From positions 32,001 through 96,000 of IMG/VR virus record IMGVR_UViG_3300005613_000008: DNA of 64,000 nucleotides, one strand, 5' to 3'. Shown piece after piece: positions 9,569 to 57,144 of the stretch. Both the position numbers and the translations under genes were made by a program. Under the pieces are notes generated by a model, which worked only from the letters and a program-made list of their open reading frames with translations, had not been told where the DNA came from and searched no databases. The DNA comes from a virus. The stretch's first letter is position 1. Each line of letters begins with the position of its first letter.

Positions 9569-11010
9569 TGGCAATCAAACGTTATAAGGCAGATGCCGAC
9601 AACACAATCGTAAATGCTTATGCACCAAATCTAAGATCTAGAGCATCTGGCTCCAACATGGGTCAGGCTGATGTAAGCGAAGTATATTCTATCTGGGGTC
9701 GCCAATCAACTTCCTCTGCGGAACTCTCCAGAGTTCTAACCAAATTTGATGTAGATTCAATCTCTTCAGATAGAACAGCAGGCACAATCCCAGCACAGGG
9801 AAGTGTTAGCTTTTATCTACGTTTATTCAACGCAGAAACGTCCAAGACCGTTCCAAAAAACTTTACCATAGTCGCACAAGCGATCTCAAAATCATGGGCA
9901 GAGGGCGATGGTCTAGACCTCGAAAACTACAAAGATTTGGGTAAGTCTAACTGGGTTTCTGCTTCTTCTACAACTGCTTGGGATACCGCTGGTGGTGATT
10001 ACCATGCTCTACCTGTCTTCTCACAATCATTTGCCACAGGACTTGAAGACCTTGAGATAGACATTACTGATCTTGTGGAAGAGTGGCTTGACGGAACAAA
10101 AGCCAACTACGGCGTTGGTGTTCGTTTGACTTCTTCTCAGGAAGCAAGTTCGTCTGCAAATCCTGACGGAGCAGAGACCTCCTATTACACCAAGCGCTTC
10201 TTTGCGAGAGGTACGCAATACTTTTTCAAAAAGCCTGTGATTGAGGCACGCTGGAACTCTTCCAACGGAGACGACAGGGGGCAGTTCTTTATGTCTTCTT
10301 CTCTCGCACCAGCAGCAGATAACCTTAATACGCTTTATCTCTACAACTACGTTCGTGGTCAGTTAACCAACATTCCGGCAGTTGGAACTGGTGAAATCTA
10401 TGTCGATCTTTACGAAACTCTCGGTGGAGACGCATTGACACAAGCAGTAGAGACACCAGCAACTGGCGGCTGGGTCTCAACAGGTATTTACTCTTGCTCG
10501 GTTTGTTTGACTGGAACCTACACAAGTCTGCGCGATGTGTGGCACACTGGTGGCGTAGAATACTTTACCGGTTCTATCTCGCCACAAACATTCGGTGCTT
10601 CTGGGCTCTCAACCGGAAACAACCGTTACATCACAAAGATCAAAAATCTAAGAAATAAATACTTCTCTGAAGAGGAAGCACGCTTCAATGTTTATGTCCG
10701 AAGCAAAAACTGGTCCCCAACTATTTATACAGTAGCGTCAAGTGAGATAGAAAATACTATTATTCCTAGCGCATCATACAGGGTTTATAGAGTTATCGAT
10801 GGTTATAATGCTATTCCACACGGCACAGGATCGGATCTTCAAACACTACTCTCCTACGATGTTTCAGGAAATTACTTTAACCTTGACATGTCCTTACTTG
10901 AGCCCGGCTACGAGTATGGTATCAAGCTTGCGTTCTACGATTCACAGCGACAGACTTGGATCGAACAAGACCAGAAATTCCTATTCAGAGTAGAAGATTA
11001 TGAGTATTAA
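9568..11010 (+). CDS. Baseplate/tail protein with a DNRLRE (CBM96-like) domain
   Basis: ADADNTI...SRVLTKFD...LEIDITDLVEEWL...NYGVGVRL...FFARGT pattern; translationally coupled (TAATG) to gp6. Confidence 0.65.
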   Translation: MAIKRYKADADNTIVNAYAPNLRSRASGSNMGQADVSEVYSIWGRQSTSSAELSRVLTKFDVDSISSDRTAGTIPAQGSVSFYLRLFNAETSKTVPKNFTIVAQAISKSWAEGDGLDLENYKDLGKSNWVSASSTTAWDTAGGDYHALPVFSQSFATGLEDLEIDITDLVEEWLDGTKANYGVGVRLTSSQEASSSANPDGAETSYYTKRFFARGTQYFFKKPVIEARWNSSNGDDRGQFFMSSSLAPAADNLNTLYLYNYVRGQLTNIPAVGTGEIYVDLYETLGGDALTQAVETPATGGWVSTGIYSCSVCLTGTYTSLRDVWHTGGVEYFTGSISPQTFGASGLSTGNNRYITKIKNLRNKYFSEEEARFNVYVRSKNWSPTIYTVASSEIENTIIPSASYRVYRVIDGYNAIPHGTGSDLQTLLSYDVSGNYFNLDMSLLEPGYEYGIKLAFYDSQRQTWIEQDQKFLFRVEDYEY

Positions 11011-17000: not shown

Positions 17001-20000
17001 CACGTTACTCTGGTTTTATGAAAGTAAATTCCAATCTCGCACCTTATTACGAGATAACAGGTAACTACTACCCATTCTTTGACTATGTGTCTGCGTCTGC
17101 CGCAACATCCGGCATTTACCAGAATACAACAAGACTTAGCCTTCTTGCTCTTGATAAAACCGGTTCTGCTATCAACACTCTTGGCGAATCAACAATTAGC
17201 GGCGCTCTACAAACTCCCGCTGATGGCGAGAGGCTAAACGCCCTACTCATTCGTCGTGGTGATAACTACGGTTGGAACTGGCGTGCCCATAGAATGCAAG
17301 ACCACCCGATCTTAGATCGAGAGCATAAAGAGAATCTACTAACTGCTCTCAAGAACGAGGAGATAAAAGAATTCCGCTTACCCCCAGTCTCTATGAAGGG
17401 CAGACCAGTCATGGTAAACATGGATGTCGGCGGCGAAAACGTCACTCTCAAGGCTACTCACAACAACGAGAAGATCTACTTCAACGAAAGAGAACTTAAC
17501 GATCTAGTCTTCCAGACCGAAGACCCAACAATCACACCATTCGACCAGTTGATTGGCGTAGCACAAGACTACAGCCTAAACTGGGTGCGTTACTCTGAGA
17601 CCCTATTCCCGTCCACAAGAAACGAGTTCTCAAGCGGATCACGCGAGAGACTTGGTTATGATAACAAGTTCTGGAGGGATAGCCGTAGCGAAAGGACTGA
17701 GCTAGGATCCACAGGCAGTTTTGAACTTGGTCCCGGTATCGGAGGCTCAAACTCTTTTGACGTAACAGTGAAGCAAAGTAGCTGGATTCTCGACGCCCCA
17801 GAAGATTTCACATCAAGAACCACAATCCAAACTGCATCACATGCGAACCCTTATGTATTTATGAGCGGAACTGCTGGTGAATTACAGAATGGATATTTGT
17901 TTGCTCACGTCGAAGGTGGTCTCCCCCCACTCCAGAAACTAGCTACGCAAGCAATAGGAAACAGAGCATCTGCGATTCTTTCAAGAAAGCAGAGTCTAAC
18001 ATCTCCAAATTCTGTTGTTTCAAGAACTGGTTTTGCACCAACTGCTTCTTTGACACACTCTATTACTGATCAAATTCAGACAAAAGGCGGCGAAGCACTT
18101 TGGGAAGCTGGAACTTACGCCACAATCAATATCAAGTCTGGCAGTTCTTTCGTAACTTCTTCTTACCCTTCCGAGCCTTGGTTTGACGAATATGGAGACT
18201 TCCGTGAAGAACTGCAACTTGTCGCGAGAGATTACGCCATTATCCCAGAGTTCAGAATCTCAGAGCACATTAACGATTACGTCAAGGGCGGGACTTTCAA
18301 CAAGTCCAGCTTCGACACCTTCGAGATCCCCGGAACAACAATCAGCAGTTCACAGCAGGACTTCTACAAAGACTACTCCAACTCCGACTTCTTGCGAGAG
18401 TTCGCAAGCATCAAGGACAAGTCTGGATTAAGTGCAAAAGAAATAATGTTGACCTGCAAGGCGGCAGTCCGCTTCAATCCTTACAAGGGTTTTTATCCAG
18501 CACAAAGAACTTTGGACTTGGTAAGTCAGTTCTCAAGCTCATTTTCTAGTGGCTTTTCAATAAATTATTCTGGAACTCAATACGGAGGCTTTATTAAGTC
18601 CGCTGCTGGTGCTTATCGTCCCCTTATTCAGCCTCTCTTCGCCCCAGGCATTCTCTATAACTCCATCAAATCTGGAATTGCGGTTGATTATCCGATTATT
18701 AACACTGAATTTAAAATAAATTCTTTTAACTATTCTGGCTCCAGTTCTCCAGACGCAGAAAATTACATGTTGGCACCCCTAGTGGACGGCGGCGATTTTG
18801 ATCCACTAACTACAAATCCATCAAGTTCAACAATTTGGGATCTTCGTGTTCCATTTGAAACAATGATACAGCCTGGAAAATACATTGACAAAATTCAGTT
18901 CTTAGATTTTGAGCCACATCCTTCTGCTTCCATAAACACAACAGCTTCATTGGATACTTCTGTTTCTGATGGAATCTATGAACTTATGGCAAAGAATTTC
19001 TTTGGACAGACAGGGGATTTCTTCTTAAAAAATTCTTCTTATACAAAGATTGAGTCTGATCTTATTCAAGACGGATTAAAGTTTAAGACTGGCGATGTCT
19101 TTGCTGCGAGACTAAAAATTAGAAAGTCTCATAATGGCAAGCGTTTCTATAGTAATGAATTTGGTTCTACTGGCGATAATTCAAACTTTGCAACTCTCGG
19201 TGCGCAAGCATTTTCTGGTTCTGGCGCAGGAACAGATTTTACTTCAATAAGTGGCTCTTTCCCTATTCCACAAGATCCTGCACACAACTCAGGTTTTCAA
19301 GAAACATTTACAATGTATTCTCGACCAACTGCATTTGGTCCAGCAATCAGTGGTCGAGGAAATGAAACACCATCGTTTAATGATTATACAGAAGCATTCA
19401 ACTCTGGTACTCTAGATTCACTTGAGGGTTATAACTGGGCTTATACACCTCCTTATTACCACGGCGAATCTTGGGTTGACTTTATTTTCCGACCAGATTC
19501 AACTAAAACTTACACACTTGAAGACATCTTGACAGAAACAGATACTGTCTATTGGCGCGCAGATCCGGGTCAATTGAGCGGAAGTGGCGGTTTAAACAAT
19601 AACTATAATCCAAAACTAATTCATTCTCAATTTAGGTTTGGTAGCGCTGCTATATCGACTGGTCAAGTCGCCCCAATCTACGGTGGACTTGCAATCAACA
19701 AAAACGCAATGCAACTTGATTCATCCCTCAATCTCTTCGGTGTTGAGCGAGTCCCCAAGAAGCGTAAAGACAAGTTCGGAAACACAATCCTTGATGAGAA
19801 CGAACTCGCCGGCAAGCGTTGGGTCATCCAGCCCAAGTGGGAAACACCGATGCTTAACTTCGCGAACGTAACAAGCGGCTCGGGCAACATTACTTATCCG
19901 ACAAACTTCTCCGAGTCTGTGCCGCGCGGTATGTGGCACCAATTTGGTGAAATACCGACAGATCCAAGCACGGGTGTGTTCCTCGAAATTGGTGACATTC

Positions 20001-20866
20001 CAAACGATTGGCTCAAATACCACTATGATGTCATTAATGAAGACTCGGTTTACAACAACAATGACCCCGCAGGTTCAGGTTCTACTGCTTACCTCGATTA
20101 CCAGTCTCTAACCGACCTATTCGGCTTCACACGCTCTCAGAAAAAAGACAGCGCAAAAGTACGCCTTGGAGAAATTGCAGACAAGAAAGAGGTTTATGAA
20201 GCCGTTGTTGCCATTCCTTATGTCGTGGAAGCAAACGAAGATTACTCAGGAAACCAAAAGAAGGATGCAATCGAGCGTAAGAAGTTCATTAGCATTCCAA
20301 GGCAGCGCTTTGATGCTGCCCTCAAGGGACGTGAAGGCTCTCAGGACGGTGATTCTCTAGAGACAGCAGGCGAGAGTATCCGCAAGATGGTACAGAAGAT
20401 GAAGCGCTATGTTATGCCACCACAATTCGATTTCATCAATTTCGACCAGATTGATCCAATCGTAATGTACTTCTTTGAGTTCAAGTACGAGTTTGACAAG
20501 GACGATCTCTCCTACATCTGGCAGAACCTTGCTCCGAGAGATTACAAGAAGATCACTTTCCAAGAGGCTTCTGTCGCTCATGATTTGATGAACACAGAGT
20601 TGCTTGAAGAGCAAAATATTATTGACAACCCCAACCTTCGTTGGATGGTATTCAAGGTAAAACAGAAGGCAACCAAAGATTATTATGACCTCATTCCTCC
20701 ACAGATCAAAGCTGCAAGACCTACTAGTAATCTTGATAAGCCCGAGACCGACAAGGATGATGAGTATCTACAGTTCAACTGGCCATACGATTACCTTTCC
20801 TTCGTAGAACTAGTTAAACTTGAAGCTGATGTTCTTTATAAGGCAGATGAAGAAGAAACAGAATGA
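11000..20866 (+). CDS. Giant (3288 aa) baseplate/tail protein with multiple LamG/concanavalin-A-like domains
   Basis: LamG signatures GVTVEFW..WNHYALT..YVNG..GAMDEFRFW and FTFSIW..WNHVAFS..YLNG..FTGAMDQISMW; Ser/Thr/Gly rich; position after gp6 corresponds to T4 gp7. Confidence 0.8.
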   Translation: MSIKDLFGKSTNYVSETDQKDAFSDAESSKNVQQITEKQNSFEPQIDYTDPQTFAKYGSAEQYYKSAIDRILDFYPYDGSDAEYNSFYNKSLDIEKYIFNNLYPRTNGYVDFAGSSYISLKGGPHTIAASNTKGLFKDPQSSQRETANIYDEDIYTTEGLPSDYGQGTRESNLLCDFERGVTVEFWLSSSAISSADQQAIFHITGSGQNDELTIFLSGTTGSPFHVRLKENGVTILNDEQVGTTPTTSSILGWNHYALTFKSASLGIASMLYVNGVLDAQTTLGSTGAGTFEQSGSLGYVASGSATETLLNGAMDEFRFWKVERTAQEIGRNWFGQVRGGSNTDISNTTLGVYYKFNEGITGITAQDSVVLDYSGRVSNGTFTGYTLTTRNTGSAIVLAGAAASEYLDPIIYANHPDVSSLRTSLIETGSIYDSNNNASIGSMMPSWVIEEHEETQNDNFTYLMHIVGAYFDKIRLQIAALPDFKTPVYTSSSFKALPFAEHLPASLGLETPQLFVDADVLERFLNRNETQNYEFDLNDTKNLIYLNLYNNLTYLFKSKGTHKAVRNVLRAFNIDDKLVRFNTYANNFVYDLENNLRQTTVYDAVVNFNHADNLGAVVYSTASADSTQLGYISSSNDDKYEDRYGFTLETDVTFPKFIRSIDTFDRNFITASLFGIHSASADSAATEIFDPSIYVFAEREEAYSKNIRFRLSSSLLSTTLTSSNFLGVYNDQPWSLSVRLRPDSFGLTGSVEGVTTSNYILEFTGYNQLLGEIRESFTVTGSVANADAQNLLRSPKRLYVGAQRTDVTGSLINKSDVLVSAVRYWSKNLDNETLKQHAYDFENYGIKDSNKHLSPLDADNAKTLNSHTLVLSYDFSGITTSDGSGEFVVNDISSGSIENRTKFGKLGEISSYLYPAKGVGFGVSSTKAVIKKEFNVHQFINPELAIGENLVQIKTEDDKLFDTLDTIPNYHYLLEKSMYGAISEEMLNFFAGVVDFQNLIGHPVNQYRMEYKELSKLREVFFRRVAEVSEVEKFVDYYKWFDDSISQIISQLVPASADYTADILNTVESHVLERNKYQHRIPMMAFTSSTEGVAFGAEELRYNWDRNHAPVSGLERDNSNWWKERAEREGTISSGDAAVDSDRTQIRNVTTNQTNGGVGRSFTTAGVKYSRSSFKYRTLSKGQVFEAKRTKEIKGGVNFTDDKDIHYTYTALHPAGPVNQDNDIFVPKNVLLGFTDDLVALEDTSDPPENPAAKVKRSILVQHGRDWEDGIGYKNVKSSKAFPFNIVSSSVRSGYNAHVIARATASIEITNLHNDVYGPDMERPMQGPFTEYAVGGHQSRHIKLNTGGDNYLNRPEAWKIALGKCPNTDGAIGMVGADYPYPEANEEGESPYPLTGAQKATYFRDETAKRPVNIRNIQHRTGSTILGNYNHNYDVVHTVGGYSNPRAFIDEQPTLPAIAEGADVVKTILDLERGRNGHFTFVDDYNAGYLTGSGDYKNKTVIVSRFSSPGSPETSAPAFKDFRSGDFSVYNTINNRNWTSRRPFQGVTSSIVSQTTGFRSFDHTGRDFGFTNLAARHSARFFRDSYVESDTDFPNVPRNTPDLNSPGNADDAFTEAPSFHKVHRNNLLRAKVLTTVAEEPSPLNLQNDKAVYLDSTGLTHGCLVSALSGTTQGLVSSIQKNGFTFSIWMQPGAVNQEIFNLVRTNFSGLPALRLHTSFVSSRHRLNVSFVGISGSNKDYAEIYATASAGFDPRNQWNHVAFSVGQYLSSSTTSIYLNGSKLTNFVTNDLIYPDAILYATGTNGNNFRGWGGNLPDGTPSSGPDMAERFYVIGADYNSANAVGNNPFTGAMDQISMWTTVLSDSEISSIYNSGTPYNITGSEVYQNNSASLFAWYKFDDPDSFNGSNIGEYDPVNNAVNDSSGNNRHMFAIAPYSQTNQTTIVSASIPVPLAGDSSTIMVERDSYICDQKYDNLNLHHQIPRSDRQYSWIGASITHTGTCEPRYSGFMKVNSNLAPYYEITGNYYPFFDYVSASAATSGIYQNTTRLSLLALDKTGSAINTLGESTISGALQTPADGERLNALLIRRGDNYGWNWRAHRMQDHPILDREHKENLLTALKNEEIKEFRLPPVSMKGRPVMVNMDVGGENVTLKATHNNEKIYFNERELNDLVFQTEDPTITPFDQLIGVAQDYSLNWVRYSETLFPSTRNEFSSGSRERLGYDNKFWRDSRSERTELGSTGSFELGPGIGGSNSFDVTVKQSSWILDAPEDFTSRTTIQTASHANPYVFMSGTAGELQNGYLFAHVEGGLPPLQKLATQAIGNRASAILSRKQSLTSPNSVVSRTGFAPTASLTHSITDQIQTKGGEALWEAGTYATINIKSGSSFVTSSYPSEPWFDEYGDFREELQLVARDYAIIPEFRISEHINDYVKGGTFNKSSFDTFEIPGTTISSSQQDFYKDYSNSDFLREFASIKDKSGLSAKEIMLTCKAAVRFNPYKGFYPAQRTLDLVSQFSSSFSSGFSINYSGTQYGGFIKSAAGAYRPLIQPLFAPGILYNSIKSGIAVDYPIINTEFKINSFNYSGSSSPDAENYMLAPLVDGGDFDPLTTNPSSSTIWDLRVPFETMIQPGKYIDKIQFLDFEPHPSASINTTASLDTSVSDGIYELMAKNFFGQTGDFFLKNSSYTKIESDLIQDGLKFKTGDVFAARLKIRKSHNGKRFYSNEFGSTGDNSNFATLGAQAFSGSGAGTDFTSISGSFPIPQDPAHNSGFQETFTMYSRPTAFGPAISGRGNETPSFNDYTEAFNSGTLDSLEGYNWAYTPPYYHGESWVDFIFRPDSTKTYTLEDILTETDTVYWRADPGQLSGSGGLNNNYNPKLIHSQFRFGSAAISTGQVAPIYGGLAINKNAMQLDSSLNLFGVERVPKKRKDKFGNTILDENELAGKRWVIQPKWETPMLNFANVTSGSGNITYPTNFSESVPRGMWHQFGEIPTDPSTGVFLEIGDIPNDWLKYHYDVINEDSVYNNNDPAGSGSTAYLDYQSLTDLFGFTRSQKKDSAKVRLGEIADKKEVYEAVVAIPYVVEANEDYSGNQKKDAIERKKFISIPRQRFDAALKGREGSQDGDSLETAGESIRKMVQKMKRYVMPPQFDFINFDQIDPIVMYFFEFKYEFDKDDLSYIWQNLAPRDYKKITFQEASVAHDLMNTELLEEQNIIDNPNLRWMVFKVKQKATKDYYDLIPPQIKAARPTSNLDKPETDKDDEYLQFNWPYDYLSFVELVKLEADVLYKADEEETE

Positions 20867-35446: not shown

Positions 35447-35539
35447 ATGACAAGATTTCTTTTTGATTCTGCGATTAGCGGAGTGATTATGTATATCGGC
35501 TGGTTAGCTGGTATTGCTCTATATAGTATTTGTTTCTAA
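35447..35539 (+). CDS. 30-aa single-pass membrane micro-protein
   Basis: SD AGGAG 6 nt before ATG; MTRFLFDSAISGVIMYIGWLAGIALYSICF. This is the 3' part of track ORF 35198..35539. Confidence 0.6.
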   Translation: MTRFLFDSAISGVIMYIGWLAGIALYSICF

Positions 35540-35550
35540 TCGGAGGAGCC

Positions 35551-38500
35551 TTGATCAAAATTGCACACATTGCTGATACTCATATTAAGAATTTGAAGTA
35601 TCACGAAGATTACCGCGCCTGCTTTGAGCAGATGTACGAAATCCTTCGAGAGCAGGAAGTAGATTATATCGTTCACTGCGGCGACATCGCACACACAAAG
35701 ACCCAGATTTCCCCAGAGTTTGTGGAAATGGCGTCTGACTTTTTCACAAATCTCAGTAAGATTGCGACGACATTTATTATTCTTGGTAACCACGATGGTA
35801 ACCTAAAGAACAGTAGCCGCCAAGACGCAATAACGCCTATTGTTCAGGCGCTTGATTTTGGAACTCTCCGACTATTGAAGAACTCAGGCGAGACTCATCT
35901 TGCCTATGGCAACGTTGTTCTCAATGTTTTGTCTGTTTTTGATAGAGATAACTGGGTTCAGCCCACAGATCCAGATAAAATCAATATTGCTCTCTATCAC
36001 GGCGCAATCTCCAACTGCCAGACAGACGCAGGCTGGACGATGGAGCATGGTGAAGATAATCTCTCAATCTTTGAAGAGTTTGATTTTGCAATGCTTGGCG
36101 ACATTCACAAGCGCCAGTTCTTGGATAAGGAGCAGCGTGTCTACTACGCAGGATCTACCATCCAGCAGAACCATGGAGAAGAAGACAATAAGGGCTTCTC
36201 TGTTTGGACTATTAATTCTAAGGACGATTGGAACATTGAACACTTTGGGCTACAGAACCCTCGTCCATTTGTTACAGTCGAACTAACATGTACAGGCAAG
36301 ATCCCTCGCAAGACTACTGTACCTGCAAACGCCCGCCTACGTCTTGTAAGTGATAACAATCTGCCTCTTGACGTAATGCGTAAAGCAGTAGATATAGCAA
36401 AACACAAGTTTCGCCCAGAGTCTATCTCTTTCCTTAATCGCGCCGCAGGCAAACGTGGTGATGTTGAAGGGTTAACAGAAGGGCTTGGAGCACAGAATCT
36501 TCGAGATCCAGAAGTTCAGCAGGAGTTGATCTCAGAGTATCTCAAAGATTATCAGGTTAGTTCTGACACTCTATCTAAGGTTTATGAACTGAACTCAAAG
36601 TATAACGTTCGGGTCGAATCAAAAGAAGATATTTCTAGAAATGTAAATTGGGATCTCGTCAGATTTGAATGGTCTAATCTATTCAATTATGGAGAGAACA
36701 ACTGCGTTGACTTCAATAATGTAAATGGAATTGTCGGTATTTTTGGTAAGAACTTCTCAGGTAAGTCTTCCATTATTGATGCCATTCTCTTTACAATGTT
36801 CAATACAACTTCTAAAAACGAGCGCAAGAATGTCAATGTTGTAAATCAGAACCGCGATTGGGGCGAAGGCAAGTTGTCTATTGCTATTAACGATAAGACC
36901 TACACAATCTGTCGCAAGGTCACAAAATATGTAAAGAAAGGCAAAGACGGCGAAAGTACAGAAGCAAAAACCGAACTAGACTTTTTGGTCTATGACGCTG
37001 TTCTTGACGAGACTACTTCACTAAACGGCACAACTCGCAACGAAACCGACGCAGTAATCCGTCGTCACTTTGGGACTATTGACGATTTTCTTATTTCATC
37101 TCTATCCTCGCAGCATGGCGCTCTTGCGTTTATCAATGAGGGTTCAACCAAGCGTAAGGAAATCATTGCGAAGTTCCTCGATCTTCAGTTCTTTGATAAG
37201 AAATTCAAACTAGCCAAAGAGGACTCTATTACGTCCAAGGCACTCGTCAAAAAATTAGAAGGGCGAGATTACGAAAAAGAAATTCTGGAAGCAGAGGAAG
37301 CCTTTGAGAGCTACAAAAAGGCTATTTCTGTGGTAGAGGCAGAAGAGAAATTGATAGAAACCAAGTTGGCTACAGCCCATATCCTTCTAAACGATGTTTC
37401 TCGTAAGATTATCGATATTCCGACAGATGCGATCGATATCCACACAGTTCAGTCCGAGATCAAAACAATAAAAAATCAACTGATTTCTCTATCTCAATCG
37501 GTAGTTGAAGATTCTGAGAAACTAATTAAGGAAAGAGAACGCTTTGAGAAGATCTCGGCTTTAATGATGAGCCTTGATTACGACTCACTAAAAGACTCTC
37601 TTAGTACAATTCAGGAAACTGAAGAGAGGCTTAAGGGCTTCACAAGCAGATTGGAGATTGCGACCGAGAAAAAGAGGCTATTAGAAGATATTCCCTGTGG
37701 CTCATCTTACCCTGCTTGTAAGTTTATTCGTGATGCTCACGTCGCATCAGCGACAATTCCAGAAGTGGAATCAAAAGCGAATGAACTTCGCAACATTCTT
37801 GAGGGACTTAACCCCGAGATTGTACGAGACCACCTAAACAAGTACAGTGCGCTTGAAACAAAGCGAATCAACACCAAAACCTTTATTAAGGAACTGGAAC
37901 TATCGGTTGAAAAGATGAATAGCGCAATTCAGCGTCTGAATACAAAGATGCAGGAACTTGTCGCACAGCAGTCGGAATACAATGACAATAAGGAAGCAAT
38001 CGAGAATCTAGAAAAACTAATAAAGGAGAAGGATACATATGACAATCAAATCAAATCTCTTGAAAGAGAGAATCGATCAAATAACCAAAAGAAGATTGAT
38101 CTTTATAAATCACTTGGTTCAGAAGAACAACGAGTCGAAAGCCTCAAAGAAAGAAGAATAGAGTTCGAGACAATTCAATCGGAGTATGCAGCGTATGATT
38201 TATTCCTGCGCTGTATGCATCCGAACGGGATTGCTTACGATATCATCAAGCAGAAACTACCAGTAATCAACGAAGAGATTGCAAAGATCCTATCAAACGT
38301 CGTAGACTTTGAGATCTTTTTTGAGACATCAGGCAACAAGTTTGACATTTTTATCAAGCACCCTCGGTATGATGCCCGCCCTATTGAGATGGCGTCCGGT
38401 GCGGAGAAGTCTATGGCTGCTATGGCTATTCGTCTTGCTCTGCTCTCCGTATCTTCTTTGCCAAAGGGAAACACTTTCGTACTTGACGAGCCCGGTACTG

Positions 38501-38664
38501 CTTTGGACGAAGAGAATATGGCTGGATTTATTCGGATCTTGGAACTAATTAAGGTATATTTCAAGAACGTCTTGCTGATTTCTCACCTTGATTCTCTCAA
38601 GGATTGTGTAGATATGCAGATTGTGATTGAGAAAGAAGCAGGTTTTGCAAAGGTAAATCAATAA
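35551..38664 (+). CDS. Fused Mre11/SbcD nuclease - Rad50/SbcC ATPase (T4 gp47-gp46 fusion)
   Basis: Metallophosphoesterase motifs DTH, GD, GNHD, HG, GDIH; Walker A GKNFSGKSS; coiled coil; signature ASGAEK; Walker B VLDEP; H-loop ISH. TTG start at 35551 after SD GGAGG. Confidence 0.93.
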   Translation: MIKIAHIADTHIKNLKYHEDYRACFEQMYEILREQEVDYIVHCGDIAHTKTQISPEFVEMASDFFTNLSKIATTFIILGNHDGNLKNSSRQDAITPIVQALDFGTLRLLKNSGETHLAYGNVVLNVLSVFDRDNWVQPTDPDKINIALYHGAISNCQTDAGWTMEHGEDNLSIFEEFDFAMLGDIHKRQFLDKEQRVYYAGSTIQQNHGEEDNKGFSVWTINSKDDWNIEHFGLQNPRPFVTVELTCTGKIPRKTTVPANARLRLVSDNNLPLDVMRKAVDIAKHKFRPESISFLNRAAGKRGDVEGLTEGLGAQNLRDPEVQQELISEYLKDYQVSSDTLSKVYELNSKYNVRVESKEDISRNVNWDLVRFEWSNLFNYGENNCVDFNNVNGIVGIFGKNFSGKSSIIDAILFTMFNTTSKNERKNVNVVNQNRDWGEGKLSIAINDKTYTICRKVTKYVKKGKDGESTEAKTELDFLVYDAVLDETTSLNGTTRNETDAVIRRHFGTIDDFLISSLSSQHGALAFINEGSTKRKEIIAKFLDLQFFDKKFKLAKEDSITSKALVKKLEGRDYEKEILEAEEAFESYKKAISVVEAEEKLIETKLATAHILLNDVSRKIIDIPTDAIDIHTVQSEIKTIKNQLISLSQSVVEDSEKLIKERERFEKISALMMSLDYDSLKDSLSTIQETEERLKGFTSRLEIATEKKRLLEDIPCGSSYPACKFIRDAHVASATIPEVESKANELRNILEGLNPEIVRDHLNKYSALETKRINTKTFIKELELSVEKMNSAIQRLNTKMQELVAQQSEYNDNKEAIENLEKLIKEKDTYDNQIKSLERENRSNNQKKIDLYKSLGSEEQRVESLKERRIEFETIQSEYAAYDLFLRCMHPNGIAYDIIKQKLPVINEEIAKILSNVVDFEIFFETSGNKFDIFIKHPRYDARPIEMASGAEKSMAAMAIRLALLSVSSLPKGNTFVLDEPGTALDEENMAGFIRILELIKVYFKNVLLISHLDSLKDCVDMQIVIEKEAGFAKVNQ

Positions 38665-38879
38665 TGAAAATTACAAAGACTAGACTAAAGCAGATTATCA
38701 AGGAAGAGCTTAGGGAAACAATGATAGATGAAAAAGTAGATCTATTTCTTTCTGATTTTTGCAAAGACAATGATGGAGAAGATCCTGATTTTGCTGATGT
38801 AAAGGCGTTTTTTGGCGATTCTCACCTATCGAGTCTTGTGTGGGAAGAGATAAGGGGCATAAGGGCTCCTTGTAAATAA
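38664..38879 (+). CDS. Small acidic protein with IIKEEL leader
   Basis: MKITKTRLKQIIKEELRE; TAATG coupling. Confidence 0.7.
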   Translation: MKITKTRLKQIIKEELRETMIDEKVDLFLSDFCKDNDGEDPDFADVKAFFGDSHLSSLVWEEIRGIRAPCK

Positions 38880-38890
38880 AAGGTAAATCA

Positions 38891-40027
38891 ATGAATAACG
38901 ACGACGAGTTTGGCTTCTTGCCTCCCGCAGAAGCACCCCCATCATTCAACCAAGAAAAGGACCACTTCCACGAAGAAGTAGAAGCGGAAGACTTTGGTAT
39001 GGTTGAGGACTTCGGATTACAGATGGAATACTCTGACGAAGACATGCTCCCCGAGAACACAGCCCCATCATCTTTGAATGTGGGATTTGTCGGTGTTGGC
39101 GGGGGCGGCAATAAGATGGCGAACGCTATGATTGAGTTGGGCTTTAACAAAACCCTGCTTGTCAACAGCACAGGCAAAGACATTCCAAAGAATGTAGATG
39201 AAGAACACGTCGTCCTTATTCCTGACTCTGACGGCATCGGCAAGAACATCTCCTACGGCAAGGAAGTTCTAACACAGAACGGCGCAGTAGTTGAAGACGC
39301 ACTCCGCATCAAGCTAGGCAAGGTTGATTGGTTATTTGTTATGGCTGGTGGTGGTGGGGGCACTGGTTCGTCCGTGGTTGCTCTACAACCCGTCTTTGAG
39401 CGCTACCTACAATCTGTTCAGGCAAGCGGCAAGGTTGTCTATATCGTTTCTTGGCCAACAGCACAAGAAAACCTAAACCCAACCATCGCCCGTAACGCCC
39501 TGTCTCTGCTCAATGATGTGACCCCTTACCCACACATCGTTCTAGATAACGAGCGTTCTACGCGCCTCCTACGCGGTCGTATCGGTATGCTTGGTATGTA
39601 TCCAGTAGCTAATACTCAGTTCTCTAAAATCCTAGCTCAGATCCTTAAACTATCTACCGAGGATTCCCCAATCCAATCATTTGATTCCAAGGATCTAGAA
39701 ACCTGCTTAAACAAAGACGGTCGTGCCTTTATTGGTTCCACAATGATTAAGGATCCCAACACTGGCAAACTTGGCACAACGATCATGCACAACTGTATGA
39801 ATCGTTCTGCTTGTCCGCCACCCAAGGGCAAAGCGGCAGCCGGGTCGCTTATCCTTGTGGTCAGCGAAGAAATGGTTGCCGACCCTCGCGTGTCCAAGCA
39901 CCTTGAATCTGCGATTGCTTATGTTGGTGGTCGCTGCGAGACGCTTTTCTCTGGGGTTTATGTCAGAAAGAATGTCCCCGGACTGATTGCGATACTATCT
40001 ATGAATGGGATCGAGAAAGGAAAATAA
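38891..40027 (+). CDS. ftsZ-like: FtsZ/tubulin-superfamily GTPase
   Basis: GFVGVGGGGNKMA, tubulin signature GGGGGTGS, LDNE, T7-like SFDSKDL; acidic 60-aa N-terminal extension; no C-terminal tail. Confidence 0.9.
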   Translation: MNNDDEFGFLPPAEAPPSFNQEKDHFHEEVEAEDFGMVEDFGLQMEYSDEDMLPENTAPSSLNVGFVGVGGGGNKMANAMIELGFNKTLLVNSTGKDIPKNVDEEHVVLIPDSDGIGKNISYGKEVLTQNGAVVEDALRIKLGKVDWLFVMAGGGGGTGSSVVALQPVFERYLQSVQASGKVVYIVSWPTAQENLNPTIARNALSLLNDVTPYPHIVLDNERSTRLLRGRIGMLGMYPVANTQFSKILAQILKLSTEDSPIQSFDSKDLETCLNKDGRAFIGSTMIKDPNTGKLGTTIMHNCMNRSACPPPKGKAAAGSLILVVSEEMVADPRVSKHLESAIAYVGGRCETLFSGVYVRKNVPGLIAILSMNGIEKGK

Positions 40028-40031
40028 ATAA

Positions 40032-40277
40032 ATGAAGATCACAAAGCCTCAACTGAAACAGATTATCTTAGAAGAGTTATCTTCTTTGGAGACTGGCGAG
40101 CAACGCCGTGATTTCCAAAAAATGACTAATGCGCCAGCACAACAACAAACGTCTTTTGAAGAATGGGTTTCTGCTGTTTCGGCGTTTGGCTACGAGTTTG
40201 ACGAAAACTCCCCCAACCCCTATGATGCTTGGTTTGGGGGTCAGAGCCCAGAAGAGTATTTTAGGAGTTCTAGATAA
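40032..40277 (+). CDS. Small protein with IILEEL leader
   Basis: MKITKPQLKQIILEEL. Confidence 0.7.
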   Translation: MKITKPQLKQIILEELSSLETGEQRRDFQKMTNAPAQQQTSFEEWVSAVSAFGYEFDENSPNPYDAWFGGQSPEEYFRSSR

Positions 40278-40690
40278 TGCCTTACATGAAGAAAGGAAAG
40301 TGCGTCTACAAAAAAAACAAAGACGGCTCACAAGGAAAAAAGGTTGGTTGTACCAAAGGTTCAGTTGATGACTATTTAAAAGCGTTGTATGCGAATGTAG
40401 ATGACGCACTAAAAAAGGAAAACAAAACTATGAAAATCAAGAAGTCAGAGCTAATCGCTCTAATTAAAGAAGAGATTATGTCCGAGATGGATGGTCTCAC
40501 TATGATGGACGATCCATACGACGACGATGATATGGATATGAAGCAGGAGGGTATGGAAAACATTACCCCCGAGAACATCGAAATTGTTGGACAGGCTATG
40601 GCTCAAATGGCTCCACTTATTGGTGCTATGTCTCTTCCAGTTCTTATTGGAATGATCTACGAGAAACTAAAAGAAATGGGTGCTAAATAA
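40277..40690 (+). CDS. Hypothetical protein: basic N-terminal module plus internal IKEEI leader (probable second start at 40430)
   Basis: MPYMKKGKCVYKK...; in-frame ATG 40430 with SD AAGGA begins MKIKKSELIALIKEEI. Confidence 0.7.
   Translation: MPYMKKGKCVYKKNKDGSQGKKVGCTKGSVDDYLKALYANVDDALKKENKTMKIKKSELIALIKEEIMSEMDGLTMMDDPYDDDDMDMKQEGMENITPENIEIVGQAMAQMAPLIGAMSLPVLIGMIYEKLKEMGAK
40371..40378 (+). promoter_or_regulatory. Putative internal late promoter ACTATTTA
   Basis: About 52 nt before in-frame ATG 40430. Confidence 0.45.
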
Positions 40691-40890
40691 TGAGTGAAGA
40701 GACCAAACAAGCCCTGCTTGATAAAGGCGTAGAAAAGATTACTTCCCGCAAACTACTTGTGTGGATTGCTGCCACAGGTCTAATGCTGTGGGGCGGACTA
40801 GAATCAGGTGACTGGGTTATTATCTCTGGTCTCTACCTTGGTGGTCAATCTGTGATTGACGCTATTGTAAAACTAAAAGGAATGGAATAA
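40690..40890 (+). CDS. Putative holin (two transmembrane segments)
   Basis: 66 aa; SRKLLVWIAATGLMLWGG and WVIISGLYLGGQ.. pattern; next to spanin-like genes. Confidence 0.55.
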   Translation: MSEETKQALLDKGVEKITSRKLLVWIAATGLMLWGGLESGDWVIISGLYLGGQSVIDAIVKLKGME

Positions 40891-40892
40891 AA

Positions 40893-41180
40893 ATGAAAAT
40901 TACCAAAACTTTTTTAAAAAAAATCATTAAAGAAGAATTATCTTTCATAAAAGAGAATGATCCAATGTATGATCCTTTCGATGATGCGATCGTACCAGAT
41001 GAAACCCAGCAAGCTGCTGTGCCTGATGAAGAATATGAATCAGTAATGGATAAAATTAGAGAACTAGAATCTGTTTCAAAAAGCCTAGGAACTGTGAAGA
41101 TATCTTTCTTGAATACAGAATTAGATAAACTTCTTGATGAGCTATCAGAAATGGCAGATGTAATGCCTCGTCGTAGATGA
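40893..41180 (+). CDS. Small acidic protein with IIKEEL leader
   Basis: MKITKTFLKKIIKEEL. Confidence 0.7.
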   Translation: MKITKTFLKKIIKEELSFIKENDPMYDPFDDAIVPDETQQAAVPDEEYESVMDKIRELESVSKSLGTVKISFLNTELDKLLDELSEMADVMPRRR

Positions 41181-43957: not shown

Positions 43958-45538
43958 ATGCCAAGATTAACGAAAAAAGAAATTCTCAAAGAAGTCGTTA
44001 AGTGCGGTAAGGAACCTTCTTATTTCCTAAAAAACTATGCCCGTATATCTCACCCGATGCACGGGCTTATGTTATTTAAGACATTTGATTATCAGGATCG
44101 GCTGCTAGAAGATTTCAACAACTACCGCTTTAATATTATCAACAAAGGTCGTCAGCTAGGTATTTCAACGGTTACCGCTGGCTACATTGTTTGGATGATG
44201 CTGTTTCATCGTGATAAGACCATTCTTGTTATGGCAACTAAGTTTGAAACAGCAGGTAACTTGGTCCGAAAAGTTAAAAATATTATGAAGAACCTTCCTG
44301 ATTGGATCAGGATTGCAAATATTACAACAGACAACCGCACGTCTTTTGAGTTGTCTAATGGTTCTTCTATCAAGGCTGCCTCTACCTCTGGTGATGCTGG
44401 TCGTTCCGAGGCACTATCACTTCTTGTTCTTGACGAGGCTGCTCACATTGAGGGTCTCGACGATCTATGGACTGGTCTCTATCCGACACTATCTACTGGT
44501 GGTCGCTGCATCGCCATCTCCACACCAAATGGTGTTGGTAACTGGTTCCACAAAACCTGCGCAGGTGCTGAGAACGGAGAAAATAATTTCAATCTCACAA
44601 CGCTTATGTGGTGGGTCCACCCAGAAAGAGATGAAGAATGGTTTAAGAAAGAAACCAAGAACATGTCCAGAAGACAGATCGCACAGGAGTTGGAATGTAA
44701 CTTCAATACTTCAGGCGAAACTGTTATTGATCCAGAGAACATGGAATGGATCATGGCTAATGTCAAAGAACCAAAGCATAAAACAGGCTTTGATAGAAAC
44801 TTTTGGATCTGGGAAGAGTATGACCCAAGCTGCAATTATCTTATGGCGGCAGATGTAGCCAGAGGCGACGGCGCTGATAGTTCTACATTCCACATTCTAA
44901 AACTTGAAACAATGGAAATCATTGGCGAATACATGGGCAAGCCAACACCCGACCTTTATGCGAACATGTTAAATCAGGTCGGCAGAGAATTTGGTAACGC
45001 TATGCTCGTTGTAGAAAATAATTCTATTGGCTATACCGTTATAGATAAATTGATAGAATATGGATATCCTAATCTTTATTATTCAATCAAATCTACACAC
45101 GAATACATTGACCAGCACCTTGGGGAACACAAGTCCGGTGCTATTGCAGGTTTCTCAACCACAAGCAAGACTAGACCTCTCATCGTAGCCAAGCTAGAAG
45201 AGTTTATGAGAAACAAACTAGTTAAGACGTATTCTTCACGTTTAGCAAACGAGTTCCGCACTTTTATTTGGTATAACGGGAAGCCACAAGCCATGAGAGG
45301 CTACAACGATGACTTGGTGATGGCTCTTGCAATTTGTTGTTGGGTTAGGGACACTGCCCTCCAGTCAAACGCCCGAGACCTTAACTACCAAAAAGCATTT
45401 GTTGATGCCATTATGACTTCGAGGACAACCCTGAACACACAGATAAAAGGACAAATTGGCTACACAGGCGAAGACAATACAAGTAAAATGAACGAAGCAA
45501 AAAATCTATATTCCCAATATATGTGGATAATCAAGTGA
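43958..45538 (+). CDS. gp17: Terminase large subunit
   Basis: NKGRQLGIST (Walker A region), LLVLDEAA (Walker B), nuclease motifs DVARGDGAD and DDLVMALA. Confidence 0.96.
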   Translation: MPRLTKKEILKEVVKCGKEPSYFLKNYARISHPMHGLMLFKTFDYQDRLLEDFNNYRFNIINKGRQLGISTVTAGYIVWMMLFHRDKTILVMATKFETAGNLVRKVKNIMKNLPDWIRIANITTDNRTSFELSNGSSIKAASTSGDAGRSEALSLLVLDEAAHIEGLDDLWTGLYPTLSTGGRCIAISTPNGVGNWFHKTCAGAENGENNFNLTTLMWWVHPERDEEWFKKETKNMSRRQIAQELECNFNTSGETVIDPENMEWIMANVKEPKHKTGFDRNFWIWEEYDPSCNYLMAADVARGDGADSSTFHILKLETMEIIGEYMGKPTPDLYANMLNQVGREFGNAMLVVENNSIGYTVIDKLIEYGYPNLYYSIKSTHEYIDQHLGEHKSGAIAGFSTTSKTRPLIVAKLEEFMRNKLVKTYSSRLANEFRTFIWYNGKPQAMRGYNDDLVMALAICCWVRDTALQSNARDLNYQKAFVDAIMTSRTTLNTQIKGQIGYTGEDNTSKMNEAKNLYSQYMWIIK

Positions 45539-45546
45539 GAAATTAA

Positions 45547-47544
45547 ATGGCACCCCAGAACCCAAAACAAGGACAGAACCCGGCAAATAGAGATTCTCAA
45601 TTATTTAGATCTCTTACGCGCTTATTCTCTGGACCTATCATTAACTATCGTTCCGAATCTGGTCGCAAGATTCGCAGACAACATCTTGACAAATATTCTA
45701 CAAGATTCAAGTCAGCATCAGGGCAGCAGTTTAAGAAGCAGTCTTATAACCCATTAGACACAATCGCTGCCAATGCTATTGCAAATCAACGCCGCTCTGA
45801 ACGTTATATCGATTTCGATCAGATGGAATACATGCCAGAGTTGGCTTCTGCTCTTGACATTTACGCAGACGAAATGACCACATTCTCTGCTCTTTCTCCG
45901 ATGCTAAACATCAAGTGCCGCAACGATGAAATTAAAGCTGTTCTTAATATTCTTTACCACAACATTATGAATGTAGAGCACAATCTCTTTGGTTGGTGCC
46001 GCACAATGTGCAAGTATGGTGACTTCATTCTTTATCTCGACATCGATGACGAGATTGGGATTAAATCCACGATTGCCCTTCCCCTACAAGAAGTCGAGAG
46101 ACTAGAAGGTCTTGACGCTACAAACCCTAACTATGTTCAGTATCAGTGGAACTCGGCAGGAATGACCTTTGAAAATTGGCAGGTCGCCCATTTCCGCATT
46201 CTTGGTAATGACAAATACTCACCCTATGGAACCTCTGTTCTAGAACCAGCCCGCCGCATTTGGCGTCAATTGACCCTAATGGAAGACGCCATGATGGCTT
46301 ATCGCATCGTTCGCTCTTCTGAACGCAAAGTGTTCAAGATTGATGTTGGTGCCATTCCTCCACAAGAGGTAGAGCAATACATGCAAAAGATCGTTACTCA
46401 GCTAAAGAGGCATACTATTGTTGATAAAGATACAGGACGCATCGATCTTCGCTACAACCCTCTATCAATCGAAGAAGACTACTATATTCCGATTCGTGCT
46501 GGTTCTGTGACCGATATTCAATCACTCGCTGGTGGTCAGAACACAACGCAGATTGACGACATCAAATATCTCCGCGACAAAATGTTCTCTGCTATCAAGA
46601 TTCCACAAGCTTATCTTACAATGGGCGACGGAGCACAAGAAGATAAAACAACACTAGCAACCAAAGACATTCGTTTTGCTCGCACCATTCAGCGCCTACA
46701 GCGTTCTGTTATTCACGAACTAGAAAAGGTTGGCATTATCCACCTTTACACGCTTGGCTACAGAGGCGAAGATCTTATGAACTTCAAGCTTGCTCTCAAC
46801 AATCCAAGCAAGATTGCAGAACTACAAGAACTGGAGCACTGGAAGACAAAATTTGACATTGCTGCGGCAGCCACAGAGGGTTACTTCTCGCGTCGTTGGG
46901 TTGCCGACAATATCTTTGGTATGTCTCACGAAGAGTTCCTACGCAACCAGCGCGAGATGTTCTACGACCGCAAGCACGACACTGCCCTCGAAGGCGTTGC
47001 TGAGGCTGTCGCTGCTGGTGGCGGTGGTGAAGGTGGTGGAGGCGGTCTTGATCTTGGCGGCGACGGCGGCGGCTTAGATTTAGGTGGTGAAGAAGAAGGA
47101 GGACTCGATCTGGGTGGTGAAGAAGCCGGCGGCGAAGAAGCAGGCGGCGAAGAAGAGTCTGCACTCCTAGCGGCACCTCCCGGCTCTCGTCCCTCACCGC
47201 GTCTAGCACCTTCTCTTGGCAAGCGTGCGAGATCAGGTAAAAAATATCTAACTAAGGGCTCCAAAGGCAAAGTCTATCAAAAAGTAGCAACTGATAAACG
47301 ACCCGCTGGAGCTAGAACAAGAAACTATAACAGTGTTCCAACACCAGAAATGAATACTTATAGAACCAACAACCTCGGCGCTTCTGAACTAAGATCGTTA
47401 GCTAGAGGCATTTATGAGGAACAAGATCCTATTTACCTCAGAGAACAGGAAGAGGAAACCTCTCTTCTTGAAGTAAACAACTCAGTCAAGTTCCTGATTG
47501 AATCTTTAGAAAACAAGGTTATGGAGACCGACAATGAAGAATAA
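45547..47544 (+). CDS. gp20: Portal protein with Gly/Glu-rich C-terminal extension
   Basis: ELASALDIYADE, RIVRSSERKVFKIDVG, EEDYYIP, IDDIKYLRDKMFSAIKIP, DIRFARTIQRLQ. Confidence 0.96.
   Translation: MAPQNPKQGQNPANRDSQLFRSLTRLFSGPIINYRSESGRKIRRQHLDKYSTRFKSASGQQFKKQSYNPLDTIAANAIANQRRSERYIDFDQMEYMPELASALDIYADEMTTFSALSPMLNIKCRNDEIKAVLNILYHNIMNVEHNLFGWCRTMCKYGDFILYLDIDDEIGIKSTIALPLQEVERLEGLDATNPNYVQYQWNSAGMTFENWQVAHFRILGNDKYSPYGTSVLEPARRIWRQLTLMEDAMMAYRIVRSSERKVFKIDVGAIPPQEVEQYMQKIVTQLKRHTIVDKDTGRIDLRYNPLSIEEDYYIPIRAGSVTDIQSLAGGQNTTQIDDIKYLRDKMFSAIKIPQAYLTMGDGAQEDKTTLATKDIRFARTIQRLQRSVIHELEKVGIIHLYTLGYRGEDLMNFKLALNNPSKIAELQELEHWKTKFDIAAAATEGYFSRRWVADNIFGMSHEEFLRNQREMFYDRKHDTALEGVAEAVAAGGGGEGGGGGLDLGGDGGGLDLGGEEEGGLDLGGEEAGGEEAGGEEESALLAAPPGSRPSPRLAPSLGKRARSGKKYLTKGSKGKVYQKVATDKRPAGARTRNYNSVPTPEMNTYRTNNLGASELRSLARGIYEEQDPIYLREQEEETSLLEVNNSVKFLIESLENKVMETDNEE
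47017..47157 (+). repeat. Low-complexity Gly/Glu repeat (GGLDLGG x3, GGEE repeats) in the portal
   Basis: Seen in the translation. Confidence 0.85.
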
Positions 47545-49839: not shown

Positions 49840-50439
49840 ATGAAACTACTACGAGAATACTACGAACTATGTGAAGGCGGCGTTTGCCAAGACCTTCTTA
49901 CCGAGGACGAGAAGCGCTTTGTCTCCAATGGCGGCATGATGCTTACAGGTAAGCTACAAGAAGCAGATGTTCAGAACGGCAACGGTCGTGTTTATCCTTA
50001 CAAAGTTTTAGCCCGAGAAGTCCAAAACTACAAGAAACTAGTAAAAGAAAACAGGGCACTTGGCGAACTAGACCACCCTGACGATTCAGTTATCAATCTA
50101 AAAAACGCTTCACATATGGTTACAGACATTTGGATGGAAGATAAGGCTGTTATGGGTAAGGTCAAGGTTCTCAACACTCCATCAGGTCAGGTTCTCAAGT
50201 CTCTCGTAGAGTCAGGGGTTAAACTTGGCATCTCTTCTCGTGGTATGGGCTCCGTATCAGAAGGCGCAGGCAAGGTTATAGTCCAAGAAGACTTTCAGCT
50301 TATTTGCTTTGACTTTGTATCGGAGCCATCGACACCAAACGCATTTATGATGCGAGAAGCAAAAGAGTTTAATAATAGAGTATTCACAAAAGCCGACCGA
50401 ATCAACAGGTTATTAAACGAGGTATTAGAAAATGAATAA
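49840..50439 (+). CDS. gp21: Prohead core protease
   Basis: NGNGRVYP, ALGELDHP, GISSRGMGS, FDFVSEPSTPNA. Confidence 0.95.
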   Translation: MKLLREYYELCEGGVCQDLLTEDEKRFVSNGGMMLTGKLQEADVQNGNGRVYPYKVLAREVQNYKKLVKENRALGELDHPDDSVINLKNASHMVTDIWMEDKAVMGKVKVLNTPSGQVLKSLVESGVKLGISSRGMGSVSEGAGKVIVQEDFQLICFDFVSEPSTPNAFMMREAKEFNNRVFTKADRINRLLNEVLENE

Positions 50440-56013: not shown

Positions 56014-56040
56014 CGAGTGCTTGTAGCGGAGAACAAAAGA

Positions 56041-57144
56041 ATGAAAATAAGCAAGAATGTAAAGATCGGAATTACCACCAAGTGTGACGAAAATCTATTT
56101 GGAAATGGGCTCAACCAAAACGTTTGGTTCCTATACAGACTTCTAAGTGGTGCCGGATACGATGTGCATCTAGTGTCGGAATCAAACAAGCATCACGGTA
56201 AGAAGCTGATTACCCAAGACATTCTTCCCTTAACAAAAGAAAATATAAAAGAATACGGCATGATTATGGAGTGCGCTTTTGCTCTTGAAAATGCTACTGC
56301 TGATGCTCTAATAGAATCTGGTGGAGTTCGCATTGGTATTCAGTATGGCAACAGACTCCTAATTGATTTAGAGAACATGCTCTTTAAACCAGATAACGGC
56401 GGTATAGGTAAGAAAGACATTCATGAAATCTGGTGCTCTCCACACTTTGAGTTCTCAATCCCAGCATTGGAGATCTTAGAGAAAACAGAAATGCATGTTT
56501 GCCCCTATGTTTGGAGCCCTGACGTTGTTACTCACACTTACATAAACTTTAAGATCAATCCGTTCTTTAAGCCATCTACAAACATCAATAACATTTCATT
56601 TTTTGAACCTAACCTAAACATTGTAAAGTCTTGTATGATTCCCATGATTGTTGTTGAAGATGTCTACAATAGAAGACCAGAACTTATCAATGACGTTTAT
56701 AACTTTGGTTCACTTAAGCTCGCAAAGCATAAAACCTTCTTATCGATGGTTAACAAACTAAATCTAAAGAAAGACAAAAAGATTTCTTTTGAAGGTCGCT
56801 ACAAGTTTGTTTGGGCTCTTCACAAAGAGTTTGCTGGCACCATTGTTAGCCATCACTGGATGAACGGGCTAAACTATCTTCAGCTTGAGGCAATGTACTT
56901 TGGAACCCCATTCGTCCACAACTCTGAGTTTTTCAAAGACCATGGTTATTATTTCCCTGAATGGGATGCTAAGGAAGGTTCACGTCAATTAGAGCGCGCT
57001 ATTGAAACCCATAAGGGCGTCTACCTAAAAGAGAGAGAAAGAGACAGAGAAAAACTTTGGGAGTTCCATCCAGACAACCCTAAGAACATTGAAGGCTATT
57101 CCGAGCTAATTGAAAATGCTCTTGCAAAGCATTTGAGAAAATAA
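56041..57144 (+). CDS. DUF2827-like protein (putative GT-B glycosyltransferase)
   Basis: KIGIT..LFGNGLNQN, HEIWCSPH, CPYVWSP, FFEPNLNIVKS..IPM, SHHWMNGLNYLQLEAMYFGTPFVHNS...GYYFP; ATG 56041 preferred to track start 56017. Confidence 0.75.
   Translation: MKISKNVKIGITTKCDENLFGNGLNQNVWFLYRLLSGAGYDVHLVSESNKHHGKKLITQDILPLTKENIKEYGMIMECAFALENATADALIESGGVRIGIQYGNRLLIDLENMLFKPDNGGIGKKDIHEIWCSPHFEFSIPALEILEKTEMHVCPYVWSPDVVTHTYINFKINPFFKPSTNINNISFFEPNLNIVKSCMIPMIVVEDVYNRRPELINDVYNFGSLKLAKHKTFLSMVNKLNLKKDKKISFEGRYKFVWALHKEFAGTIVSHHWMNGLNYLQLEAMYFGTPFVHNSEFFKDHGYYFPEWDAKEGSRQLERAIETHKGVYLKERERDREKLWEFHPDNPKNIEGYSELIENALAKHLRK

Follow-up and report, generated by a model that had tools for sequence, protein, structure and literature searches.

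The stretch of viral DNA analysed here (the window, 64,000 nucleotides (nt) long) comprises bases 32001-96000 of the 127,323-bp IMG/VR viral record IMGVR_UViG_3300005613_000008, which CheckV rates as 70% complete. Its central feature is a gene on the + strand (38891-40027) for a divergent GTPase of the tubulin/FtsZ superfamily, 378 amino acids (aa) in length and hereafter called the window tubulin. An earlier note on this DNA, made without database searches, had picked out this open reading frame (ORF), whose limits were exact, and three GTPase motifs, all of which were located on the + strand: the phosphate-binding T1 loop GVGGGGN (residues 68-74, 39092-39112), the T4-loop tubulin signature GGGGGTGSS (residues 153-161, 39347-39373) and the T7 loop SFDSKDL (DxxD; residues 263-269, 39677-39697), which pairs with the FtsZ 'nlDfaD' motif in a HMMER alignment. 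G70 and G73 of T1 are invariant in 37 sequences including distant relatives; G155, G157 and G159 of the T4 loop and D265 of T7 are also invariant, and G156, T158 and D268 are conserved in at least 90%. Conservation of all the GTP-contact loops and the T7 aspartates is thus complete or at least 90% even with relatives of 22-27% identity counted.

The protein scored 35 bits against Pfam Tubulin (PF00091; cutoff 33), and gave no match to Pfam FtsZ_C, to TubZ_C/TubZ-like_C or to any PHROGs family. Its sole NCBIfam match, ftsZ (TIGR00065), reached 51.6 bits where the cutoff is 295.2. The sequence features expected of the superfamily (T4 signature, glycine-rich T1, acidic T7) are therefore all present in a protein whose low TIGR00065 score indicates that it is a superfamily member and not an FtsZ ortholog. 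An AlphaFold2 model built from the 37-sequence alignment had a mean predicted local distance difference test score (pLDDT) of 87.3 and a predicted template modelling score of 0.82, and contained the complete two-domain fold, i.e. a Rossmann-like GTPase domain, helix H7 and a C-terminal domain; only residues 1-31 and 35-46 were disordered. The superfamily assignment made by the earlier note is thus borne out by both the Pfam score and the predicted fold. Foldseek matched the model to CetZ (3zid), many FtsZs and TubZ at E values of ~1e-19 to 1e-20 with 18-21% identity. When the family profile was run against PDB sequences, the best match was CetZ 3zid (104.6 bits), followed by RepX/TubZ (94.9), M. 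jannaschii FtsZ (92.3), CetZ2 (89.9) and S. aureus FtsZ (~80 bits).

The two ends of the protein set it apart from other members of the superfamily. The C-terminus (...MNGIEKGK) lies four residues past the last predicted strand (E365-374), as it does throughout the near clade, and consequently the protein lacks a linker and a C-terminal peptide of the FtsZ type; the absence of a membrane-tether tail had been correctly noted. The N-terminus carries an acidic arm (residues 1-60) with 18 Asp/Glu and a single Lys/Arg, as the earlier note had also seen. The first half of the arm (residues 1-30, 38891-38980, + strand) is variable, acidic, proline-rich and disordered (pLDDT below 50 for residues 1-31), with a mean majority-residue frequency of 0.31, compared with 0.59 for residues 31-60 and 0.76 for the core. 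The second half contains two conserved elements, both on the + strand. The first is the acidic-aromatic peptide EDFGMVEDFG (residues 33-42, 38987-39016; consensus DDFGFIEHYG or DDFDFVEAY), in which D34 and F35 each occur in ~90% of 39 sequences filtered at 85% identity. The second is LPEN (residues 53-56, 39047-39058), in which L53, P54 and N56 have frequencies of 0.9, 0.8 and 0.9 and which in the model anchors the arm to the core (pLDDT 91 for residues 51-60).

The acidic-aromatic peptide (DFGxxExFG / DFDF) is kept in all clades, down to 51% identity, within a pattern [DE][DE]F[GD]F[VI]xxY...(D/E)xxLPxN that lies ~20 residues ahead of strand S1, and the acidic stretch preceding it is highly variable in length between clades. 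Relatives of 25-30% identity have an equivalent acidic-hydrophobic peptide, e.g. IPDLDIE or LEEFE. The family thus bears its short linear motif on an N-terminal tail, where FtsZ, TubZ and PhuZ have theirs on a C-terminal one.

We compared conservation across the 26 loci (picked by tubulin similarity) that contain full-length primase, SbcCD, tubulin, large terminase subunit (TerL) and portal genes. In 24 of them the tubulin ranked first in conservation among ten core genes. Its mean identity to the window was 90.9%; TerL averaged 83.3%, portal 76.1% and SbcCD 64.8%. Nei-Gojobori omega for the tubulin was 0.025-0.037 in three unsaturated pairs, at or below the TerL and portal values, and in deeper pairs its nonsynonymous divergence was ~0.10, compared with 0.14-0.18 for TerL and 0.17-0.23 for portal. 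The Pfam score above cutoff, the hundreds of homologs described below and the low omega show that the gene is real, and it is under strong purifying selection.

In FtsZ and tubulin, the DxxD of T7 completes the GTPase site of the neighbouring subunit and acts only in trans. The conservation of the acidic T7 residues, together with the constraint on the whole protein, is our main argument for a self-assembling filament. The alternative, a GTPase switch or enzyme that does not polymerise and has merely kept the tubulin fold, is very unlikely: the marginal Pfam score would suit it, and polymerisation is itself predicted from sequence, but such a protein would have little use for a nearly invariant DxxD that is useful only in trans within a polymer, and conservation over its whole surface exceeds that of TerL.

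The family appears to be viral only, within what was searched. A search of 5.8 billion proteins returned 972 clusters at 90% identity, of which the top 120 were 58-95% identical, came chiefly from marine sources (Tara, JGI, ENA) and either had no name or bore the automatic label 'cell division GTPase FtsZ'. When 1.84 billion representatives were searched exhaustively with HMMER, only 609 proteins were found at E <= 1e-3, with an abrupt fall in identity from three full-length clusters (43-51%) to a broad set at 24-33%. IMG/VR contains at least 389 related loci, and two relatives of 25-30% identity sit among phage genes on IMG/VR contigs of 80 kb and 375 kb. Neighbours in the ESM Atlas were 87-100% viral. 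A scan of 185,579 species genomes, sensitive to close relatives only, gave just two close matches, both on short contigs of metagenome-assembled genomes (MAGs), one of Flavobacteriaceae (PAAD01000063.1) and one of Legionellales (PBLX01000051.1). Both are phage contigs of the same lineage, with tubulin 88%, TerL 77-79% and portal 78-81% identical. Since they show phage TerL/portal synteny and come from MAGs of unrelated taxa, they are likely mis-binned phage DNA, i.e. contamination and not evidence of a host.

The sole relative in a cultured phage found by tblastn was gp138 of Bacillus phage G (24-26% identity), described in its paper as an FtsZ/tubulin-like GTPase and KEGG CetZ homolog that was undetected in the virion proteome (10.1101/2024.12.16.628780). 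Databases name members of the family by automatic labels only, and within the limited full-text coverage of our literature search the family was not described anywhere. One distant relative, P0257 (624 aa), combines in one polypeptide a tubulin core, an AAA+ lid (PF25601) and a C-terminus that resembles a helix-turn-helix (HTH) of Fis type; this fusion might tie the tubulin directly to DNA binding, or it may be a chimera produced by assembly.

We used IQ-TREE (51 rows, LG+C20, careful search) to place the family relative to a small set of references, i.e. two FtsZ, two TubZ, two PhuZ and one haloarchaeal paralog. The near clade was recovered with full support (100/100) and has a stem of 1.8 substitutions per site, and a 93/89 branch joined it to the viral proteins of 25-33% identity; phage G gp138, c-st TubZ and PhuZ fell outside this branch. 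The two FtsZ references (100/99) clustered with the Haloferax pHV4 paralog. The earlier note had allowed for the sequence to nest within ordinary host FtsZ; given the low TIGR00065 score and the well-supported, long-stemmed clade, it clearly does not, although the backbone of the tree is weak, with many long branches, and an approximately unbiased (AU) test did not reject a forced grouping of the clade with FtsZ (p 0.097). The family would add a deep virus-only branch that bears on the early evolution of the superfamily.

These results also bear on the idea, raised in the earlier note, that the protein poisons host division. The window tubulin would then co-assemble with or cap host FtsZ and, having no tether peptide, block the Z-ring, so that the cell filaments and offers a larger volume for phage production. 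The missing FtsZ-type C-terminal peptide, the retained FtsZ-like T7 loop and top-surface motifs and the unrejected FtsZ sister grouping are all consistent with this. Nevertheless we consider it unlikely. The protein is only ~17-21% identical to any FtsZ and scores 51.6 bits where TIGR00065 asks for 295; the family occurs in many phage lineages, presumably with diverse hosts, yet its own sequence is conserved, which points to a protein that interacts with itself more than to one that keeps pace with host FtsZ; and the conserved N-terminal motif is given no role. Known phage inhibitors of FtsZ, moreover, are small peptides. With ~20% identity to FtsZ and a complete kit for self-assembly, poisoning is the weaker of the functional ideas in the earlier note, the other being that the protein positions phage DNA or capsids.

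The genome has the architecture of a lytic T4-like myovirus. Its close relatives with a completeness rating of 100% measure 191-196 kb, one having terminal repeats, and the window encodes primase, SbcD/SbcC, TerL and portal along with a baseplate wedge protein, a prohead protease of gp21 type and a major capsid protein resembling gp23. The last is 42-49% identical to those of the far-T4 phages, Flavobacterium phage immuto, Microcystis phage Mel-JY01 and Rhodothermus phage RM378, and 31% identical to gp23 of the T4 group (RB69). The label 'T4-type' in the earlier note therefore holds only as distant, 'far-T4' kinship, and not as any closer relationship to phage T4. By megablast, no phage record matched the window DNA. 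Chimallin (phiKZ gp54), which the earlier note had brought up, was matched neither in the window's record nor in four 100%-complete relatives by sequence search, which did recover the phiKZ control.

Immediately upstream of the tubulin (35530-38664, + strand) is a gene for a fused SbcD/SbcC (Mre11-Rad50-like) nuclease of 1044 aa (Pfam Metallophos and SMC_N/AAA_23; PHROG 77 and 100), in which SbcD, a Mre11-like phosphoesterase, and SbcC, a Rad50-like structural-maintenance ATPase (SMC), form a single protein; in phage T4, gp47 and gp46 are encoded separately. The SbcCD stop overlaps the tubulin start by 4 nt in 17 related loci. In the window the two genes are separated by a 71-aa ORF (38664-38879, + strand; 4 of 83 loci) with the leader MKITKTRLKQIIKEEL. 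The 13-nt junction AAGGTAAATCAAT, containing a ribosome-binding site and start context, is present at both ends of this ORF (38650-38662 and 38880-38892), and this duplication suggests that the ORF entered the SbcCD/tubulin junction as a cassette.

Downstream of the tubulin is a block (40032-41180, + strand) of variable, leader-tagged small ORFs, starting at 40032 (14 of 83 loci), 40277/40430 (28 of 83) and 40893 (1 of 83), and a 66-aa protein with two transmembrane segments (40690-40890; 81 of 83), which is followed by a weak match to an Rz-like spanin (E 7e-4). The gene had been described as lying between recombination and lysis genes; SbcD/SbcC upstream agrees with this, while the lysis side amounts to the two-transmembrane protein and the weak spanin match. 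TerL (43958-45538, PHROG 2) and portal (45547-47544, PHROG 213), both on the + strand, are the conserved synteny partners of the tubulin, 4-6 kb downstream, and a phage T4 gp21-type prohead core protease follows (49840-50439, + strand; Pfam Peptidase_S77, E 1.7e-30). The order in the near clade is thus primase, SbcCD, variable small ORFs, tubulin, variable small ORFs, 66-aa transmembrane protein, spanin-like gene, TerL, portal and prohead protease.

In several other clades the tubulin lies even closer to a head protease. In the clade of ~60% identity it is found past portal, and in 12 loci only 2-5 nt separate it from the gp21-type prohead protease that follows it; a sister sub-clade has the protease ahead of the tubulin, at a distance of 0.7-2.4 kb. 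A ClpP-type protease lies 623 nt upstream in the clade of ~52% identity, and a head-maturation protease 1.9 kb upstream in the distant locus L082. The gene directly upstream of the tubulin in L082 (9165-9974) has an Hfq (Sm-like) domain (E 3e-11).

The small ORFs at 38664-38879, 40032-40277, 40430-40690 and 40893-41180 share the leader MKITKTxLKQIIKEEL (and variants), which also occurs on ORFs at 34531, 42866, 50432 and 51103. The leaders end in an IxE-type motif and the remainders of the proteins are wholly divergent; those beside the tubulin are hypervariable among relatives (4, 14 and 1 of 83 loci). The small ORFs may encode cargo that is directed to the capsid and cut by the gp21-type protease. 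We considered whether the tubulin shares this leader (MKITK...IIKEEL) and rejected this, as an IKEE-like motif was found in 1 of 27 arms of one clade and in none elsewhere.

The proximity of these proteases raises the possibility that the window tubulin is itself a prohead-associated protein, i.e. that it takes part in capsid assembly, belongs to the core or is packaged inside the capsid, and that the protease removes its arm, e.g. by cutting LPEN between E and N. It adjoins the gp21-type protease in the 12 loci above and lies near head proteases of other types in three more clades; the leaders of its window neighbours end in IxE, which fits the established IxE-type cleavage consensus of the phage T4 prohead protease; and a motif scan found a single [LI]xE in the arm, the conserved L53-P54-E55. 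We nevertheless judge this reading improbable. The tubulin is without its neighbours' leader, LPEN is predicted to be packed on the core, and a passive core protein would not be expected to keep an intact GTPase and T7 machinery. In addition, the homolog of phage G went undetected in virion proteomics (10.1101/2024.12.16.628780).

A TubZ-like partition motor, segregating the phage genome as a plasmid-like prophage or in pseudolysogeny, is highly improbable here: the search for a TubR-like DNA-binding gene or another conserved neighbour came up empty (at the sensitivity of blastp), the protein is without a C-terminal helix or tail, the genome has the architecture of a lytic T4-like myovirus and no tubulin-family match was found among 72,556 plasmids. 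Pfam and PHROG searches likewise matched no HTH in the neighbours of the tubulin.

The interpretation to which we give somewhat better than an even chance is that the window tubulin is a phage-encoded, self-assembling, GTP-dependent filament whose N-terminal peptide replaces the C-terminal tails of its relatives and which has a late role in DNA, procapsid or packaging logistics in a phage that makes no nucleus. The protein would polymerise head-to-tail by itself in a GTP-dependent manner, the T7 loop of each subunit prompting the next one to hydrolyse its GTP, as happens in FtsZ, TubZ and PhuZ, to give a dynamic filament in the infected cell. The acidic arm with its DFGxxExFG / DFDF peptide would do the job of the C-terminal tails, either latching onto the adjoining subunit or binding a cargo or partner. 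The gene neighbourhood points to a filament that acts late in infection and organises replicated or recombining DNA, procapsids and packaging; by analogy, the logistics of capsids and DNA would be PhuZ-like, yet without a phage nucleus. A tubulin of this kind, conserved more strictly than the DNA-packaging genes of the phage, suggests that phages lacking the 'phage nucleus' also build their own cytoskeleton.

Several observations weigh against a late filament of this kind. The contexts of deep clades vary, e.g. DnaB and a deoxynucleoside monophosphate (dNMP) kinase in L083 and PhoH in L124. A conserved adaptor or partner gene was not found by all-against-all blastp in seven clade groups within +/-10 kb, a search that remote homologs may escape; the two other cross-clade 'families' proved to be antisense shadow ORFs within the tubulin gene. 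Marine hosts are small cells, in which the need for a positioning spindle is less obvious. Finally, choosing the loci by tubulin similarity slightly favours the tubulin in the identity comparison.

We also put forward, tentatively and with less confidence than the filament itself, that the family is a third mechanistic class, an N-terminal-tail tubulin of abundant, nucleus-less T4-like marine phages (~190-290 kb) that couples procapsid maturation to packaging; in a bolder version, the prohead protease would process the tubulin, which would act inside or on the prohead. To our knowledge, phage tubulins have been studied almost solely in nucleus-forming jumbo phages (PhuZ) and plasmid-like prophages (TubZ). 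The family would show that ordinary lytic, ocean-abundant T4-like phages rely on a tubulin of their own, kept more strictly than terminase or portal, and its reversed layout, with an N-terminal acidic peptide and no C-terminal tail, would be a natural experiment on the disordered tails of tubulin filaments.

Other features of the window lie further from the tubulin. The major capsid protein (59637-61442, 601 aa) aligns with T4-type gp23 only over residues ~308-595, and its ~300 extra N-terminal residues are common to 'far-T4' phages only. Two giant ORFs (1133-7363, 2076 aa; 11000-20866, 3288 aa) flank the baseplate-wedge gene and presumably encode tail fibre or baseplate proteins. An ORF amid head and tail genes (56017-57144) has a strong DUF2827 match (E 2.8e-70), and another at 41882-42499 matches PHROG 3704 ('ferredoxin', moron/auxiliary metabolic gene class; E 1.9e-16) but occurs in only 9 of the 83 related loci. 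The promoter motifs ACTAATTA and TATAAATA were not enriched, and sigma-70-like sites occurred at chance level.

Among the known members of the superfamily, CetZ (3zid, 4b45, 4b46) is the best profile match but is only ~20% identical and is archaeal and chromosomal, whereas the window family is viral; the lone haloarchaeal paralog in the tree groups with FtsZ and not with the clade. FtsZ (~17-21% identical) is a cellular protein of the division cluster with a disordered C-terminal linker and a tether-binding peptide, whereas the window family is found on viral contigs and the window protein has neither. TubZ (B. cereus RepX 4ei7, B. thuringiensis 2xka, Clostridium phage c-st 3v3t) is 17-20% identical, and its two tree references do not group with the window clade. 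In type III partition, the C-terminal helix H11 and flexible tail of TubZ are needed for assembly dynamics and TubR binding; the window protein lacks both the long helix and this tail, its own tail being N-terminal and acidic; no TubR/tubC partner was found by blastp, and the genome is that of a lytic T4-like phage. Bacillus phage G gp138 ('putative FtsZ-like cell division protein') is an uncharacterised and very distant relative from a megaphage of a Gram-positive host.

PhuZ of the nucleus-forming Chimalliviridae is distant in sequence (BLASTP E 1.9 for phiKZ gp39) and in structure (Foldseek E 9e-12 and template modelling score 0.51 for Noxifer PhuZ, with PhuZ not in the top 50 by Z). The tail of PhuZ is acidic and mediates contacts between subunits; it is C-terminal and PhuZ phages have chimallin, whereas the tail of the window lineage is N-terminal and no chimallin was found by sequence. 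The likeness lies in a phage-encoded tubulin that, in phiKZ, is near head genes, and by this analogy we propose PhuZ as the probable functional analogue of the window tubulin.
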